Source: Escherichia phage vB_Eco_OMNI12
Reading direction: 5' to 3' (one strand)
Sequence record: OL362041.1
DNA: 64,000 bases
Every line of letters begins with the position of its first letter. The first letter of the stretch is position 1. The notes beneath the pieces were generated by a model that saw only the letters and a program-made list of their open reading frames with translations, had not been told where the DNA came from and did not search any database. This document shows positions 42,155-49,522 of the stretch, piece after piece. The position numbers and the translations under genes are program-made.

Positions 42155-43438
42155 ATGGCTAAAATCAACGAACTTCTGCGCGAATCAACCACAACGAATA
42201 GCAACTCAATCGGTCGCCCAAATCTCGTTGCTTTGACTCGCGCTACCACTAAATTAATATATTCTGACATTGTAGCAACGCAAAGAACTAATCAACCTGT
42301 TGCTGCTTTTTATGGTATCAAATACCTTAACCCAGACAATGAATTTACATTTAAAACTGGTGCTACTTATGCTGGCGAAGCTGGATATGTAGACCGAGAA
42401 CAAATCACAGAATTAACAGAAGAGTCTAAATTAACTCTCAATAAGGGCGATTTATTCAAATATAATAATATCGTTTATAAAGTATTAGAAGATACACCAT
42501 TTGCTGATATTGAAGAAAGCGATTTAGAATTAGCTCTTCAGATTGCAATTGTTCTTTTAAAGGTTCGTCTATTTTCTGACGCAGCGTCAACAAGCAAATT
42601 TGAAAGCTCTGATAGTGAAATTGCGGATGCTAGATTCCAGATTAATAAATGGCAAACCGCAGTTAAATCTCGTAAACTTAAAACTGGTATCACAGTTGAA
42701 TTAGCACAAGATTTAGAAGCAAATGGATTCGATGCTCCTAATTTCTTGGAAGATTTGCTTGCAACTGAAATGGCAGATGAAATCAATAAAGATATTCTGC
42801 AGTCTTTGATTACAGTGTCAAAACGCTATAAAGTTACAGGAATTACTGATACTGGATTCATCGATTTGAGTTATGCATCTGCACCTGAAGCTGGTCGTTC
42901 ATTATACCGAATGGTATGTGAAATGGTTTCGCATATCCAAAAAGAATCAACTTATACAGCAACGTTCTGTGTTGCTTCAGCTCGTGCTGCTGCGATTCTT
43001 GCTGCATCAGGTTGGTTAAAACATAAACCAGAAGATGATAAATATCTTTCACAAAATGCCTATGGGTTCTTAGCTAATGGTTTACCGCTTTATTGCGATA
43101 CTAACAGCCCATTAGATTATGTAATCGTTGGCGTAGTAGAAAATATCGGTGAAAAAGAAATTGTTGGATCAATTTTCTATGCTCCGTATACAGAAGGTCT
43201 TGACTTAGATGACCCTGAACATGTAGGTGCATTTAAAGTTGTAGTTGATCCAGAAAGTTTGCAGCCATCTATCGGTTTATTAGTTAGATATGCTTTATCT
43301 GCAAATCCTTACACCGTAGCAAAAGATGAAAAAGAAGCAAGAGTAATTGATGGTGGAGACATGGATAAAATGGCGGGTCGTTCAGATTTGTCTGTTTTAT
43401 TAGGTGTTAAATTACCAAAAATTATCGTTGATGAATAA
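42155..43438 (+). CDS. 24: Capsid vertex protein gp24
   Basis: 427 aa, gp23 paralog. Confidence 0.93.
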   Translation: MAKINELLRESTTTNSNSIGRPNLVALTRATTKLIYSDIVATQRTNQPVAAFYGIKYLNPDNEFTFKTGATYAGEAGYVDREQITELTEESKLTLNKGDLFKYNNIVYKVLEDTPFADIEESDLELALQIAIVLLKVRLFSDAASTSKFESSDSEIADARFQINKWQTAVKSRKLKTGITVELAQDLEANGFDAPNFLEDLLATEMADEINKDILQSLITVSKRYKVTGITDTGFIDLSYASAPEAGRSLYRMVCEMVSHIQKESTYTATFCVASARAAAILAASGWLKHKPEDDKYLSQNAYGFLANGLPLYCDTNSPLDYVIVGVVENIGEKEIVGSIFYAPYTEGLDLDDPEHVGAFKVVVDPESLQPSIGLLVRYALSANPYTVAKDEKEARVIDGGDMDKMAGRSDLSVLLGVKLPKIIVDE

Positions 43439-43444
43439 AACAAA

Positions 43445-43460
43445 GGGACCAAAAGGTCCC
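43445..43460. terminator. Bidirectional stem-loop GGGACC-AAAA-GGTCCC between convergent genes 24 and rnlB
   Basis: Hairpin followed by TTTTT on plus strand. Confidence 0.65.
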
Positions 43461-43467
43461 TTTTTAT

Positions 43468-44472
43468 TTAACTTACCAATTCAATCCAAGCCGGACGAAG
43501 TACATCTTGTACCATTTTAACTAATTCCTTCTTAATCAAAGAAGGATTATCCGCTTGAGCTAAAGTAATACCTTCACGAGAAGTTTCTTCCAAAATATCT
43601 TGAACAGTTAGTCCCATCACCTTTCCAAAATCCTTCGGACCAATTTCACCAATTTTAGAAATAACGTTATTTACTCGGTTCAGTGTAACGTAACAAGCTA
43701 AAATTCCAACCAATTTGTTATCAGCTTCTGACAGTTCAACTTTAGCTTTAATAGGCTTATCAGACTTTTTCTTTTCACTAAATTTAGAGTTCTTGCATTT
43801 GATAGCTACGCGATTGCCATTAGGCATCCAAGAAGGATAACAAGGTTTCAATACATATCCTTCAGCGGTAAATACTTCGCCTTTTACTTCAGCATTCCAA
43901 ACGCATTTATTTGCATCAACTAATCCAGCATGGTCTACCGTAAAATTATAATCCTGGACGACAGAATCTAAATCATTTGGCAATTTAATAAGTTCTTCAA
44001 ATTTACCACGACCTAAAAGTGGAGCCATTTTAAATTTAAATGTATTACAGAATGATTCCATCATATAATCATCGACATAAGTCACATCACCACTTTCGGT
44101 AGTAACAATAATGTCAAATACATAAAAATCTTTATCACCATAATCGACATTCTTCTGAATGCCAGGTCCAGCGAATTCGCCAAAGACTTGATAAGATACA
44201 ACCGCTGAAGTTTCCATAATATCTTGTACTGCTTTAATAGAATCAGCGTAATTCTTCAAAATAATTTCATACCCAAAGAAATCTTCAGCAGGAAGAATAG
44301 GACCAGTGCGTTTAGCGCAAGTTACTTTATCACGCTCAATAATCAATGAGAAATTTGTGCCGTGAATCTTTTCACGAGCTACCCACTCCCCACCAGTCAA
44401 TCCCAAGCTATAAAGTTTTTCAATAAATTTAGAGTTGTAATGATTTTCAAGACTGCTATACTTTTTAAACAT
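43468..44472 (-). CDS. rnlB: RNA ligase 2
   Basis: 334 aa; nucleotidyltransferase motif KIHGTN. Confidence 0.93.
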
Positions 44473-44481
44473 AATTAATCC

Positions 44482-44760
44482 TCAAAATGTAATTTCTAAC
44501 CAATCACCATCACGCTGATCACTATTGACTTTAAAGCTAAATCCTTCTTTTCTCAGCCAATCACCAATTTCTTCAGTAATCAATTTATCGCGAGCAGTAC
44601 AATAATAACTAAAATATGTTTTACCTTGTTCAGCTGCTTTATTAGCAAGTTCCGAAAAATCTTTAATAAAACACTCTAGCTTAAACTGTTTACTTTTAAG
44701 TGCTTTTTCGCGTAATCGATTAGCAAAAGATTCATTTTCATAAAGATCATACTGTTCCAT
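44482..44760 (-). CDS. Hypothetical protein (T4 24.2 position)
   Basis: 92 aa ORF. Confidence 0.6.
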   Translation of the reverse strand: MEQYDLYENESFANRLREKALKSKQFKLECFIKDFSELANKAAEQGKTYFSYYCTARDKLITEEIGDWLRKEGFSFKVNSDQRDGDWLEITF

Positions 44761-44763
44761 TTT

Positions 44764-44961
44764 TCACCTTTTATTAATATGTCTTTTTCTATAGACAACT
44801 TTTTCTCGAGTTTCAAATTTATTCTTAGCAGTCATAGCTCGAGCCCATAATACAGCCACTTCTTTCGCCTGTAAGTTTAATTCACGAGCAATTTCAATGA
44901 ATGACTTTCCAGACTCATGAAGAGTAAACACCACAACCTCAGTTCTCATAATCAATCTCAT
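44764..44961 (-). CDS. Hypothetical small protein (T4 24.3 position)
   Basis: 65 aa ORF. Confidence 0.5.
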   Translation of the reverse strand: MRLIMRTEVVVFTLHESGKSFIEIARELNLQAKEVAVLWARAMTAKNKFETREKVVYRKRHINKR

Positions 44962-45028
44962 GTTATCGAGTTGATGCCATTATATACATCATTTTCTGAG
45001 TATGTTTTGTGTGCTTTCAAAATGAAGA

Positions 45029-45046
45029 AAGGGGCCGAAGCCCCTT
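45029..45046 (-). terminator. Stem-loop AAGGGGC-UUCG-GCCCCUU after hoc
   Basis: GC hairpin with UUCG loop followed by U-rich tract on minus strand. Confidence 0.55.
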
Positions 45047-45056
45047 ATGATTATGA

Positions 45057-46763
45057 TTATGGATAGGTATAGATGATACCAGTTTCTAAAGCAGTTTTAT
45101 GAATGATGTATCCATTGCGTGATTCTTGAACATCAACTTCTGGATAGTCTTTAATCATCTTCTGAAGAGTGTAACGATGCAGGTAGTATTTACTATCTGG
45201 GTCGTCAGTTTTCCAATCTTTACCTTCTTCGGTCATTTTTTGGATTTCATCCATAACCCACCAACCGCACCAGATATAAGCTGAAGTACGATGTGGAAGA
45301 GGATGAACATAAGGCAATTCACCTTCTGGTTCTGGAGCAACTTTATCAGTTACCTGAACTTGACCTTCTGCTGTAATAGTTTTGCTATCGTAATCAGTTG
45401 CAGTAACGACAGCAGTAACTTCAATAGTTTGACTTCCAACAGATGAGGTATCGACAGTATATACGTTAGTTGACCCTTCTACAGGAGAAGAATCTTTCTT
45501 CCATGAGTAAGTAATTTGTGCTTCTTCTGGAGCACCCGTAACATTAGCCGTAAATGTAGCCGAAGCATCTTGCTGAACGTTAATAGAAGGAGGAGTCAAT
45601 GTAACCTGTGGATTCATTGTTTTCTTATTAACAGTCAATGATACTTCATTAGAAGTAACTTCCTTTTCATTGTAATTTTCTGCAGTTACTTGCGCTACAC
45701 ACTTAACTGTTTTAGCTCCAACTGTGGTAGGAGTATAGTTAAATGTAGTAGTAGTTTCTCCATCGACCAGAGAACCGTCAACATACCACTGATACGTAGC
45801 AGACGCTCCTGGTGGCTGTGAATCCAAGGCAGCAGTAAATTGAACTGGGGTTCCAATTACTCCGGCAGCAGGATTAGCAGGAGTTACGGCTAACGTAGTT
45901 GTCTGTGTCTTCTTATTAACTGTTAATGATACTTCATTAGAAGTAACGCTTAGTGCATCATAATCTGTTGCTGTTACTTGCGCTACGCATTTAATTCTTT
46001 TTACTCCACTTGTAGTTGGAGTATAGCTAAATGTAGCAGAAGTCGCTTCACCAATTTGAGAATCATCTACATACCACTGATACGTAGCAGATGCCCCATC
46101 AGGTTGAGAAGCTAAGGCAGCAGTAAATTCAACGGCTGTTCCAATCACTCCAGCTGGAGGACTATCAGGAGTTACTGCCAAGGTAGTCGTCTGCGTCTTT
46201 TTATTAACAGTCAATGATACTTCATTAGAAGTAACGCTTAGTGCATCATAATCTGCCGCAGTTACTTGAGCTACACACTTGATTTTTTTAACTCCGCTTG
46301 TGTCAGGAGTGTAATTGAATGTAGCGTCAGTTGCTTCGTCTACAGGAGAACCGTCAACGTGCCATTGATACGTAGCGTTTGCACCTGATGGCTGTGAAGC
46401 TAAGGCAGCGGTAAATTCAATTGGAGTTCCAATCACTCCAGCATCAGGGCTACCAGGAGTTACTGCCAAAGTAGTTGTTTGTGTCTTATTTTGAACTGTG
46501 ATAGTTGTACTAATTTCAGCTGTTTCAGGTTCAGATTCTGCAACTTGATTGGTTGCAACTACTTTAATAGTCTTTTGACCGGCAGGTCCTTTTAGTACAT
46601 AACTAAAAGTTGCTGACGTTTCTTCCTGTGGAGCGTCGTCTACAGTCCAAGCATATGTAATAGGTCCATCTCCAGTTTGACCACTGGGTGTAGCAGTAAA
46701 CTGCTTAGTTTCATCAATAACCCCTGTCGGTGTTTTAGGAGTTATATCAACTGTAAAAGTCAT
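45057..46763 (-). CDS. hoc: Head outer capsid protein Hoc, expanded form with five Ig-like domains plus capsid-binding domain
   Basis: 568 aa; T4 Hoc-like N-terminus and C-terminal ELPYVHPLPHR...GWWVMDEIQKMTEEGKDW; three tandem 96-aa repeats. Confidence 0.9.
   Translation of the reverse strand: MTFTVDITPKTPTGVIDETKQFTATPSGQTGDGPITYAWTVDDAPQEETSATFSYVLKGPAGQKTIKVVATNQVAESEPETAEISTTITVQNKTQTTTLAVTPGSPDAGVIGTPIEFTAALASQPSGANATYQWHVDGSPVDEATDATFNYTPDTSGVKKIKCVAQVTAADYDALSVTSNEVSLTVNKKTQTTTLAVTPDSPPAGVIGTAVEFTAALASQPDGASATYQWYVDDSQIGEATSATFSYTPTTSGVKRIKCVAQVTATDYDALSVTSNEVSLTVNKKTQTTTLAVTPANPAAGVIGTPVQFTAALDSQPPGASATYQWYVDGSLVDGETTTTFNYTPTTVGAKTVKCVAQVTAENYNEKEVTSNEVSLTVNKKTMNPQVTLTPPSINVQQDASATFTANVTGAPEEAQITYSWKKDSSPVEGSTNVYTVDTSSVGSQTIEVTAVVTATDYDSKTITAEGQVQVTDKVAPEPEGELPYVHPLPHRTSAYIWCGWWVMDEIQKMTEEGKDWKTDDPDSKYYLHRYTLQKMIKDYPEVDVQESRNGYIIHKTALETGIIYTYP
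45627..46490. repeat. Three tandem direct repeats of ~288 bp inside hoc, each encoding one Ig-like domain
   Basis: Repeat units ~46490-46203, 46202-45915, 45914-45627; recurring ttattaacagtcaatgatacttcattagaagtaac. Confidence 0.8.
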
Positions 46764-46772
46764 AAGTTATCC

Positions 46773-47453
46773 TTATTTTAATGTTACGAAAGAAGAGTTG
46801 CGTGTTTCACGAATTAGAACTGATCCGTCACGGTTAATGTAATAAATTAAGCTAAATAAAGTTTGGTGTGCTGACGCATGTTCAAAACTAGTTGGGTGAG
46901 ATTTCCAATCAGGAGTTTCAGCAATCCATTGATAAATCCACCAAGGAACAGTACAGAATCCTGGATTTTTTCCAATCAACTGAAGATTCGGGCTAAAGTT
47001 TTCCGGAAGAGTAAATACAGACTGCTTTTCAGATTCAATAATCTCAGCTACAGCCTGTTCAAATTTTTCTTCAACAAATGGAGTATCTTCAATCAAAACA
47101 TCGGTATTTTCAGGAATTTTATCTGTTTCTACTACTTCAATTTTAATGTCAGATTTAACCGGAGAATCAATCAAAAGTGCTGCTTCTGGATTGACTTCTT
47201 CATCGTCATATTTTAACCCCTCTGCAGCATCAGCAGCATCAATTAAGTCTTTAATAGATAACCCATCAGTCTCCGGCATAGGTTCACTAGCGAGCTTCTG
47301 GAGAGCTTCTTCAATATCATTAACGATATTATCAAAAGATTTATTCTTTTTGACCTTTATACCAAACTGTTCAGCATATTCAGCTAATTTAGCTTTAGCT
47401 TCTTTATTATCATCAAGAGCCTTCAGCTCTGCAATATAATCTTTATCTATCAT
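46773..47453 (-). CDS. inh: Inhibitor of prohead protease Inh
   Basis: 226 aa ORF between hoc and uvsW. Confidence 0.75.
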   Translation of the reverse strand: MIDKDYIAELKALDDNKEAKAKLAEYAEQFGIKVKKNKSFDNIVNDIEEALQKLASEPMPETDGLSIKDLIDAADAAEGLKYDDEEVNPEAALLIDSPVKSDIKIEVVETDKIPENTDVLIEDTPFVEEKFEQAVAEIIESEKQSVFTLPENFSPNLQLIGKNPGFCTVPWWIYQWIAETPDWKSHPTSFEHASAHQTLFSLIYYINRDGSVLIRETRNSSFVTLK

Positions 47454-47466
47454 AATATTTCCTCAG

Positions 47467-47474
47467 TATAAATA
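47467..47474 (+). promoter_or_regulatory. Late promoter motif TATAAATA upstream of uvsW
   Basis: Exact motif 30 nt upstream of ATG. Confidence 0.45.
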
Positions 47475-47503
47475 TAGATATATTTATTACATGGTATTTA
47501 GAC

Positions 47504-49015
47504 ATGACTGACATTAAAGTACATTTTTATGATTTTAGTCACGTGAGAATTGATTGCGAAGAAAGTACATTTCATGAACTCCGTGATTTCTTTAGCTTTG
47601 AAGCTGATGGGTATCGTTTTAATCCGAAGTACAAATATGGCCACTGGGATGGACGAATTCGTCTTTTAGATTATAATCGCCTTCTTCCATTCGGTTTAGT
47701 CGGGCAAATTAAAAAGTTCTGCGATAACTTTGGCTATAAAGCCTGGATTGACCCACAGATTAACGAAAAAGAAGAATTATCAAGAAAAGATTTTGATGAA
47801 TGGCTTTCTAAATTAGAAATCTATTCAGGAAATAAAAGAATTGAACCGCATTGGTATCAAAAAGATGCAGTGTTCGAAGGATTAGTTAATCGTCGTAGAA
47901 TTCTTAATCTTCCAACATCCGCTGGTAAATCGTTAATTCAAGCTTTGCTTGCGCGATATTATTTGGAAAATTATGAAGGTAAAATTCTTATCATTGTTCC
48001 AACAACTGCTCTAACAACTCAGATGGCTGATGACTTCGTTGACTATCGTTTATTCAGTCATGCAATGATAAAGAAAATTGGTGGCGGAGCATCAAAAGAT
48101 GATAAATATAAAAATGATGCACCGGTCGTTGTTGGTACATGGCAAACTGTAGTAAAACAACCGAAAGAATGGTTCTCACAGTTTGGAATGATGATGAATG
48201 ATGAATGCCATCTTGCTACAGGAAAAAGTATTTCATCTATCATATCAGGTTTAAATAACTGCATGTTCAAATTTGGTCTATCTGGTTCATTACGTGATGG
48301 CAAAGCCAATATCATGCAGTATGTTGGAATGTTTGGTGAAATATTTAAGCCAGTAACGACTTCTAAATTAATGGAAGATGGACAAGTAACTGAGTTAAAA
48401 ATTAATAGTATTTTTCTTCGCTATCCCGATGAGTTCACTACTAAATTAAAGGGAAAAACTTACCAAGAAGAAATAAAAATTATTACTGGGCTTAGTAAAA
48501 GAAATAAATGGATCGCTAAATTAGCTATTAAGCTTGCACAAAAAGATGAAAACGCTTTTGTCATGTTTAAACACGTATCGCACGGTAAAGCTATTTTCGA
48601 TTTAATTAAAAATGAATACGATAAAGTTTATTACGTATCAGGGGAAGTTGATACCGAAACCCGCAATATAATGAAAACCTTAGCTGAAAACGGTAAAGGA
48701 ATAATTATAGTAGCTAGTTATGGTGTATTTTCTACTGGTATTTCAGTTAAAAATCTGCATCACGTTGTTTTAGCACACGGTGTTAAATCTAAAATTATTG
48801 TATTGCAAACAATAGGTCGCGTATTACGTAAACATGGTTCTAAAACAATCGCAACAGTCTGGGACCTCATAGATGACTGTGGTGTCAAGCCAAAATCTGC
48901 TAATACTAAAAAGAAATATGTTCACTTGAACTATCTTTTAAAACACGGCATTGATCGTATTCAGCGCTACGCAGATGAAAAATTTAATTACGTAATGAAA
49001 ACAGTTAATTTATAA
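47504..49015 (+). CDS. uvsW: UvsW DNA/RNA helicase (SF2)
   Basis: 503 aa MTDIKVHFYDFSHVRIDCEES...; Walker A PTSAGKS, DECH box. Confidence 0.95.
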   Translation: MTDIKVHFYDFSHVRIDCEESTFHELRDFFSFEADGYRFNPKYKYGHWDGRIRLLDYNRLLPFGLVGQIKKFCDNFGYKAWIDPQINEKEELSRKDFDEWLSKLEIYSGNKRIEPHWYQKDAVFEGLVNRRRILNLPTSAGKSLIQALLARYYLENYEGKILIIVPTTALTTQMADDFVDYRLFSHAMIKKIGGGASKDDKYKNDAPVVVGTWQTVVKQPKEWFSQFGMMMNDECHLATGKSISSIISGLNNCMFKFGLSGSLRDGKANIMQYVGMFGEIFKPVTTSKLMEDGQVTELKINSIFLRYPDEFTTKLKGKTYQEEIKIITGLSKRNKWIAKLAIKLAQKDENAFVMFKHVSHGKAIFDLIKNEYDKVYYVSGEVDTETRNIMKTLAENGKGIIIVASYGVFSTGISVKNLHHVVLAHGVKSKIIVLQTIGRVLRKHGSKTIATVWDLIDDCGVKPKSANTKKKYVHLNYLLKHGIDRIQRYADEKFNYVMKTVNL

Positions 49016-49027
49016 GGGCTTCGGCCC
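49016..49027 (+). terminator. Stem-loop GGGC-TTCG-GCCC after uvsW
   Basis: Short GC hairpin with UUCG loop. Confidence 0.4.
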
Positions 49028-49040
49028 TTTGGAGAAAAAG

Positions 49041-49271
49041 ATGTTACTAGAATTTAAACAATTTCTTTATGAAGCTTCTATTGATGAATTTATGGGTAAA
49101 ATTGCCTCTTGTCAAACATTAGAAGGTTTAGAAGAACTTGAAGCTTATTATAAGAAAAGAGTTAAAGAAACTGAATTAAAAGATACTGATGACATCTCAG
49201 TCAGAGATGCTTTGGCAGGAAAAAGAGCTGAATTAGAAGATTCAGACGATGAAGTAGAAGAAAGCTTTTAA
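49041..49271 (+). CDS. uvsW.1: UvsW.1 small protein
   Basis: ORF track 49029..49271; start at MLLEFKQFLYEAS gives 76 aa. Confidence 0.8.
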   Translation: MLLEFKQFLYEASIDEFMGKIASCQTLEGLEELEAYYKKRVKETELKDTDDISVRDALAGKRAELEDSDDEVEESF

Positions 49272-49326
49272 ATTAAAAAAGGCCCAACCAAAAAGGAAGG
49301 GCCAAAACTATAGACTAAAGGTCACA

Positions 49327-49494
49327 CTATAGCAAAAGTTGCGTTTCATTTAATTGTTCTTCCGAACTTTCTGAAACTGGTAGTTCTTTAATGTAATTAT
49401 AGCAAGGCCCAGGATGTACAGGACCTTTGTCTGTTTCAACAACCAATGCAGAATCGATTGGAGTTTTACAGACAACACAAATCTTATCTGACAT
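49327..49494 (-). CDS. Small Cys-containing protein, 55 aa, not in ORF track
   Basis: Hand translation: MSDKICVVCKTPIDSALVVETDKGPVHPGPCYNY...; RBS GAGGAGA upstream of ATG 49492-49494. Confidence 0.5.
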   Translation of the reverse strand: MSDKICVVCKTPIDSALVVETDKGPVHPGPCYNYIKELPVSESSEEQLNETQLLL

Positions 49495-49522
49495 GATTGT
49501 CTCCTCTGAATTATATATCTAT

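Follow-up and report, generated by a model that had tools for sequence, protein, structure and literature searches.

In T4-like phages, which are widely used in therapy cocktails, Hoc is the proposed means of adherence to mucus. T4-based vaccines and vectors also use it as their main scaffold for display. In phage T4, Hoc consists of three immunoglobulin (Ig)-like domains (D1-D3) and a C-terminal capsid-binding domain (D4 below), and the capsid carries about 155 Hoc fibres of roughly 180 Å each (PMC10385173). Homologues with 1 to 10 Ig-like domains have been published, the Hoc homologue of Serratia phage Muldoon (1174 amino acids (aa)) having 10 of them (PMC10385173). Phage PNJ-9 has a Hoc without D3 (PMC11853027). 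In the GenBank record of RB30 hoc (AY101183), a repeat_region carries the note 'intragenic repeat led to appearance of additional immunoglobulin-like domain'. We analyzed hoc in a 64,000-nucleotide (nt) stretch of DNA from Escherichia phage vB_Eco_OMNI12 (OL362041.1), hereafter called the window. The Hoc of the window contains three D2 units and, judging from the sequences compared here, its gene is one allele of a genus-wide 1-to-4-copy polymorphism of the 288-nt D2 unit.

The hoc coding sequence is located at 45057..46763 on the minus strand and contains 568 codons followed by a stop codon at 45057-45059, as indicated by the open reading frame (ORF) listing, the match to T4 Hoc and Pfam. The protein matched T4 Hoc (PDB 5vf3_Z, E 2e-208), and PKD, Ig_3, I-set and PKD_4 were matched in Pfam. 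Over 24 kb, the window shared approximately 98% identity with several Tequatrovirus genomes, the nearest of which was ESCO58 (98.2% over 24 kb). The gene is an intact hoc of a Tequatrovirus (T4-like coliphage).

Tandem Repeats Finder detected a repeat at 45618-46487 with a period of 288, 3.0 copies, 79% matches and a score of 1040. A second repeat search also found three copies, at an exact spacing of 288 nt and with 78% identity. The whole array of three in-frame 288-nt units occupies 45621-46484 and encodes aa 94-189, 190-285 and 286-381. Each unit is 96 aa long, starts with TQTTTLAVTP and ends with SNEVSLTVNKK. Pairwise identities between the units were 78.8, 78.5 and 77.4% at the nucleotide level and 83, 74 and 73% at the amino acid level. 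Three in-frame units of 288 nt at 78% identity are far beyond chance. The difference in length from T4 Hoc (568 - 376 = 192 aa) corresponds to two units (2 x 96 aa). Among the units, 30 of the 96 positions differ, and the changes mostly involve polar or small residues or conservative I/V replacements.

We compared the domain organization with that of T4 Hoc. Residues 1-189 of the window Hoc were aligned with T4 Hoc 1-189, and residues 369-568 with T4 Hoc 177-376 (408 bits, few substitutions). A profile hidden Markov model (HMM) built from the three units of the window Hoc (the repeat HMM) gave a single strong match in T4 Hoc, 184.5 bits at aa 94-189 (D2), and just 32-34 bits with D1 and D3. 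Therefore, the architecture of the window Hoc is D1-(D2)x3-D3-D4, with six domains, five of them Ig-like. All features of the protein are encoded on the minus strand. D1 (aa 1-93, 46485..46763) scored 34 bits with the repeat HMM and was modelled as a beta-sandwich by AlphaFold2 with a predicted local distance difference test (pLDDT) score of 82-94. It is followed by D2-type module 1 of lineage A (aa 94-189, 46197..46484), module 2 of lineage B2 (aa 190-285, 45909..46196) and module 3 of lineage C (aa 286-381, 45621..45908). These showed 97, 95 and 99% nucleotide identity to modules 1 (A), 3 (B2) and 4 (C), respectively, of the four-unit Hoc of phage FJ1, and 76-84% to the non-corresponding units. 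The single-copy D3 (aa 382-475, 45339..45620) was aligned with T4 D3, matched Pfam Ig_3/I-set at aa 385-469 and was also modelled as a beta-sandwich. The domain at the C-terminus that binds the capsid, D4 (aa 476-568, 45060..45338), is near-identical to T4 Hoc 284-376.

The AlphaFold2 model comprised five separate beta-sandwich domains over aa 1-475 (pLDDT 80-93), and the strand pattern was alike in all three D2 units. Foldseek searches with the whole model returned chains made of Ig-domain strings. The template modelling (TM)-scores were low because the angles between the domains of the model are arbitrary, and the search was used only as confirmation of a multi-Ig string. D4 had the fewest amino acid changes from T4, with a nonsynonymous difference (pN) of 0.009, compared with 0.106 for D1 and 0.087 for D3. 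The residues listed as contacts with gp23 (PMC10385173), T4 Y293, H295, R300, W309, W310, D313 and E355-G359, were all retained, their counterparts being Y485, H487, R492, W501, W502, D505 and ESRNG 547-551 in the window Hoc.

These results largely agree with the first-pass annotation of the window, made from its letters alone. The 568-aa Hoc it described is the ORF at 45057-46763 on the minus strand with the T4 match given above. Its three consecutive repeats of about 96 residues (about 288 bp) were confirmed in every number by the repeat finders and the translation, and its description of T4 Hoc as a 376-aa protein with one copy of the module agrees with the PDB alignment and the repeat HMM. 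The array position given, 45627-46490, denotes the right array but is shifted by 6 nt relative to 45621-46484, the phase of a tandem repeat being arbitrary. The array was correctly placed downstream of the N-terminal domain and upstream of the capsid-binding domain, but D3 (aa 382-475), which lies between the array and D4, was overlooked. Thus, the amplified module was correctly recognized and is D2 of T4, whereas the total of Ig-like domains is five, not three.

To place this gene among its relatives, we sampled 51 complete hoc matches, evenly spaced, in GenBank. In this sample, 29 genes had one copy, 20 had two (about 40%) and 2 had three. Among 120 homologue clusters and references, the length of Hoc tracked the number of D2 units exactly, 376 aa corresponding to one unit, 472 aa to two and 568 or 570 aa to three, and proteins of 664 aa have four. 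Four-unit proteins of 664 aa were found in five phages, namely FJ1 (vB_EcoM_FJ1), slur03, slur08, slur14 and Sfk20, with the units in the order A-B1-B2-C. Because the units of the window match A, B2 and C of FJ1, its allele can be written A-B2-C and represents a subset of the A-B1-B2-C array. The unit boundaries of the window array were identical to those in the two-copy and four-copy alleles, and modules 100% identical to A and C of the window were present in one-copy and two-copy Hocs. Each lineage was also seen as the only D2 unit of some Hocs, 55 of them for B1, 15 for A and 7 each for C and B2. The single D2 of T4 and that of ESCO58 are B1-like mosaics, and D2 of T4 shared 85-88% nucleotide identity with B1/B2.

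The length census of these 120 homologue clusters (90%-identity representatives) and references had given a maximum of three copies. This maximum was overturned by the 664-aa proteins, which were hidden in one cluster (P0003). That cluster lumps Hocs of 472, 511, 568, 570 and 664 aa, which shows that censuses based on representatives hide the copy-number variants of repeat proteins. In the databases, three- and four-copy genes are annotated only in general terms, e.g., as 'Hoc-like head decoration' or as 'PKD domain protein'. We found no description of three- or four-copy D2 arrays or of the 1-4 series in the literature searched; the same search returned only the statement on homologues with 1 to 10 Ig-like domains and, in addition, the GenBank note on RB30. 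The window allele itself is not new, as its exact protein is already public, along with numerous alleles that have two, three or four copies. The population picture, with a common multi-copy state, four unit lineages, mosaicism and the D2 of T4 as one mosaic state, may interest phage specialists.

Several database records of hoc were unusual. The Hoc of vB_Eco_EL (P0132, 511 aa) starts inside D1 (MLQQIKLPIEVVATN...) and is a truncated or miscalled gene. In GenBank, T2, T6 and ACG-C40 have two 'Hoc' features per hoc-length match, which suggests a split or frameshifted hoc. MG010123.1 (Staphylococcus phage SAJK-IND) contains a Tequatrovirus-type hoc whose product shares 80% protein identity with the four-copy FJ1 Hoc, and OR584013.1 and PV654520.1 (Pseudomonas phages PsgM02F and vB_PSGBLB0006) contain Tequatrovirus-type hoc genes with approximately 88% nucleotide identity to that of the window. 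The host labels of these three records look doubtful, or the samples look mixed.

Tandem repeats of about 290 nt are open to mis-assembly from short reads, and the present result is based on an assembled sequence. A single D2 unit might thus have been wrongly expanded, or reads from mixed phages might have been stitched into three units. However, the units differ at 21-23% of their bases, so they are neither collapsible nor expandable copies, and no copy-number error of an assembler could create them. The reading frame is intact over 568 codons. Colinear hoc genes of 1707-1713 nt were found in 12 named GenBank phages deposited independently by different laboratories (YUEEL01, ECML-123-2, TOPO13, KMB26, EC101, ESh16, ESh26, ESh34, ESh36, UGKSEcP1, UGKSEcP2 and T4_ev151). 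The identical protein is also present in NCBI (UGC97620.1/WP_214667515.1) on three other contigs of approximately 168 kb, one of which differs from the window at 2 of 4707 nt around hoc, and two-copy and four-copy alleles with orthologous units exist. An artefact is ruled out by the divergence of the units together with the independent assemblies, and we regard it as almost certainly false. The contig with these 2 differences, the near-identical phage genome L009 (GCA_013182975.1, SNOJ01000006.1, 167,973 nt), lies in assemblies labelled Escherichia coli, which is why the WP_ accession of the window Hoc has E. coli as its taxonomy.

The units could instead have arisen by a recent, lineage-specific triplication of the T4-type D2 in situ, followed by rapid diversification. 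They are equal in length and phase and have identical ends, which would fit such an event. However, the synonymous divergence (dS) between the units of the window was 0.60-0.95, two- to fourfold the value seen for the flanking domains in the genus (at most 0.32 for D1, D3 and D4 among the window, T4, YUEEL01, JK08 and ESCO58). The ratio of nonsynonymous to synonymous divergence (dN/dS) between the units was 0.12-0.27, which speaks against rapid adaptive divergence. Moreover, counterparts with 95-100% identity to each unit exist in one-copy alleles as well as in other phages, where they occupy the corresponding position. A recent triplication was therefore ruled out by dS and by the clustering of the units by position, and is very improbable. 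By these measures, the units are paralogues that diverged long ago and have been kept under purifying selection. The first-pass annotation was thus right that the repeats are no assembly duplication, as shown by their divergence, the 12 independent deposits and the three other contigs. Its 'triplication' holds for the number of copies, but not as a fresh triplication of the T4 module, given the dS values and the four-unit array of which these units are a subset.

We next consider how the number of units changes. ESCO58, the nearest genome, has a one-copy hoc. When only D1, D3 and D4 were compared, the closest relatives of the window Hoc were JK08 (two-copy) and the one-copy Hoc P0062, both at 99.3%, and the best three-copy Hoc reached 97.9%. 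The closest D1+D3+D4 relatives of most other three-copy Hocs were likewise one- or two-copy. The array of JK08, A-C, corresponds to the window allele minus B; A and C each share 99% and D3 100% nucleotide identity with the window. The second unit of JK08 has B-type bases at nt 3 and 9 of the unit and is C-type thereafter, a pattern that an unequal B x C crossover removing one unit would leave. In the B2 unit of the window, the base at nt 3 is B1-specific and a patch around nt 244-249 is of A type, and many one-copy units are A/B, A/C or B/C mosaics. In-register identical tracts of 43, 35 and 23 nt, the two longer ones close to the 3' end of the unit, are shared between units and provide substrates for recombination. 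Mosaic modules, together with copy numbers that vary on near-identical backbones, point to unequal homologous recombination. Such out-of-register recombination, with gene conversion between units, would change both the copy number and the module content, and the exchange could take place within one genome or between co-infecting phages.

The direction of change is a separate matter. RB49, a more distant T4-like phage, has three Ig domains, i.e., one D2 (PMC10385173; title of Fokine 2011). With three Ig domains in RB49-type phages, a single D2 is the probable ancestral state at the deeper level, and the D2 array is likely to have arisen early within Tequatrovirus. The array might have been built upward, anciently diverged single-copy A, B1, B2 and C alleles being joined by unequal recombination during co-infection, and the window allele would then be a product of expansion (e.g., A-C plus B2), not of the collapse of A-B1-B2-C. 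The occurrence of all four lineages as sole D2 units and the probable one-copy ancestry suggested by RB49-type phages fit this course of events. On the other hand, out-of-register joining would need the end of D2 to be homologous to that of D1, and this homology is poor in the junction sequences. The constant order of unit types in a three-cluster scheme (no inverted order in 42 multi-copy Hocs) fits a single origin of the array better, and JK08 resembles the deletion of a unit with a B-to-C switch. We consider upward building possible but doubtful; it concerns the direction only and is compatible with the D1-(D2)x3-D3-D4 architecture. A more far-reaching scheme, which we put forward only tentatively, is that an ancient A-B1-B2-C cassette array predates the present diversity of the genus and that T4 Hoc, with its single D2, is a mosaic derived from it by collapse. 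Through shuffling, gain and loss of the units, these phages could then rapidly adapt their 155 fibres in length, valency and glycan specificity to different mucosal or environmental niches.

The possible function of the additional units was examined by comparison with PNJ-9. For PNJ-9 Hoc, binding to MUC2 was reported for D2 on its own, with fucose as the ligand and a need for S183, L184 and T185 in the NEVSLT motif (PMC11853027). Since NEVSLT is present in all three units of the window, the fibre could present three such sites. Their SLT residues are S183-L184-T185 in module A (46209..46217), aa 279-281 in module B2 (45921..45929) and aa 375-377 in module C (45633..45641), all on the minus strand, with a putative function taken from PMC11853027. 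The SLT motif was invariant in all 177 modules examined. The calculated net charge of the window Hoc was -31 (isoelectric point 4.44), compared with -14 for T4 Hoc. The acidity of Hoc has been noted and a charge-dependent role in dispersion proposed (PMC10385173).

As D4 is unchanged, attachment to the capsid should be unchanged as well, and the window Hoc would bind the center of gp23 hexamers via D4, one monomer at each. Its fibre would project two Ig domains further than that of T4. At about 45 Å per domain (roughly 180 Å for the four-domain T4 fibre), two more domains amount to roughly 80-90 Å of additional length. Each fibre would expose three D2 surfaces instead of one, SLT included, and about twice the net negative charge of T4 Hoc, which could raise the valency and reach of weak adherence to glycans or mucus and increase repulsion between particles. 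Adherence of the window Hoc to mucus through the fucose of MUC2 is plausible by analogy, the mucin-binding data coming from PNJ-9 and T4. We give even chances that the predicted gains in reach, valency and repulsion are correct in kind.

The number of copies may instead be functionally neutral, the units being tolerated spacers on a non-essential protein whose number is set by recombination and drift, not by selection. In favor of this, Hoc is described as non-essential in a note of GenBank AY101183, alleles of one to four copies are carried by near-identical backbones, and no site-specific positive selection was seen in this analysis. However, every unit is in frame with a dN/dS of 0.12-0.27, which is unexpected for spacers in a size-limited, headful-packaged genome. 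SLT is among the invariant residues of all 177 modules, and long hoc genes are kept despite their cost to the genome, as argued in PMC10385173. We therefore consider neutrality rather unlikely.

Taken together, a D1-(A-B2-C)-D3-D4 fibre, as one allele of a 1-4-copy D2 series shaped by unequal recombination, is in our judgement the best explanation, and a highly probable one. Several observations weigh against it or its extensions. The recombination scars consist of a few sites, two informative sites in JK08 and one at the head of B2 in the window. When units were typed against four references, the first module of 11 two-copy Hocs was almost as close to A (82-86%) as to B2 (84-89%). A strict A<B<C positional grammar, initially considered, was downgraded after this re-typing to the absence of a clear inversion, with types blurred by mosaicism. 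Thus, because of the 11 ambiguous first units, strict grammar is not claimed. The window allele could have arisen either by loss of B1 from a four-unit array or by gain of a unit. D4 was poorly modelled (pLDDT <50, shallow alignment), and its function is argued from identity to T4 alone. Because the SLT residues are part of the last beta-strand, misfolding, and not the lack of a direct contact, might explain why MUC2 binding was reportedly lost in the mutants. Positions that differ among the units were found in 17 of 40 predicted loop positions versus 13 of 56 strand positions, an enrichment that was not significant (Fisher p = 0.07). The earlier remark that the repeats differ at exposed positions is correct as to the differences; exposure is at most suggested by this comparison of loops with strands. 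Finally, protein production, assembly, fibre length and binding are predictions from the sequence.

The surroundings of hoc were also inspected. The gene order rnlB, 24.2, 24.3 (DUF2774), hoc, inh, uvsW is as in T4, YUEEL01 and ESCO58. A Shine-Dalgarno-like TAAGGA, read from the sequence, is located at 46770..46775 on the minus strand, 6 nt 5' of the hoc ATG, and overlaps the inh stop codon. segE, a homing endonuclease gene between inh and uvsW in T4, ESCO58, JK08 and FJ1, is absent from the window. The end of inh (47453) and the start of uvsW (47504) are separated by just 50 nt (47454-47503), as in YUEEL01. The 24.3-like ORF (65 aa, DUF2774, 44764-44961, minus strand) is separated from 24.2 by a 3-nt gap; in T4 and ESCO58, the 24.3 ORF overlaps 24.2 by 14 nt and differs in length from that of the window. 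This layout of 24.3, similar to that of YUEEL01, suggests another allele swap adjoining hoc. The T4 late-promoter motif TATAAATA occurred 24 times in the whole window versus 9.85 expected, with one copy at 47467-47474 on the plus strand, 30 nt 5' of uvsW. Between hoc/inh and 49520, no TATAAATA was found on the minus strand, and no promoter could thus be assigned to inh-hoc. An Rfam scan of 43000-49500 gave no matches, and the ORF listing contained no ORF of at least 60 aa on the opposite strand within hoc.

To our knowledge, structural and binding studies of Hoc have nearly all been performed on the one-D2 T4 protein, whereas roughly 40% of the sampled relatives have two D2 units and some have three or four. 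If the number of units alters the reach of the fibre or its avidity for glycans, it would serve as a simple genotype marker for mucosal retention and offer an existing rule for the design of longer display fibres. The present case is a modest discovery, since its sequences were already public and AY101183 annotates the repeat of the two-copy form.

Compared with T4 Hoc (376 aa; PDB 5VF3/8T1X chains; NP_049793), the window Hoc has the same gene and locus, colinear D1, D3 and D4, and the same fold and ends of D2. It differs in having three D2 units (A, B2 and C) instead of one B1-like mosaic and is 192 aa longer. In the 472-aa Hoc of the RB30/RB27 type, the 288-nt D2 unit that lies between D1 and D3 is likewise repeated in frame, but there are two units, not three. 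The 664-aa Hoc of FJ1, slur03/08/14 and Sfk20 has the same array with the same lineages at corresponding positions, and B1, which is missing from the window allele, as an additional unit that follows A and precedes B2. Long Hocs of the Muldoon type share a conserved C-terminal capsid anchor and a variable string of Ig-like domains, but their sequences are distant and their domain set is different, and they are not known to derive from a polymorphic array of near-identical units within a single genus. PNJ-9 Hoc is another natural change in domain number and has the D2 NEVSLT motif, as do all three units of the window, although it reflects the loss of a domain, not a gain, and its gene has approximately 65% nucleotide identity to T4 hoc. 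Outside phages, in-frame tandem repeats of the streptococcal alpha C/Rib and staphylococcal SasG/Aap proteins vary by unequal recombination, altering the length and valency of surface fibres. These are unrelated cell-surface proteins whose repeats are usually near-identical and fast-changing, whereas the units of Hoc are approximately 22% diverged. Thus, the window Hoc is a further, already sequenced example of the known D2 repeat alleles, unsurprising in kind.

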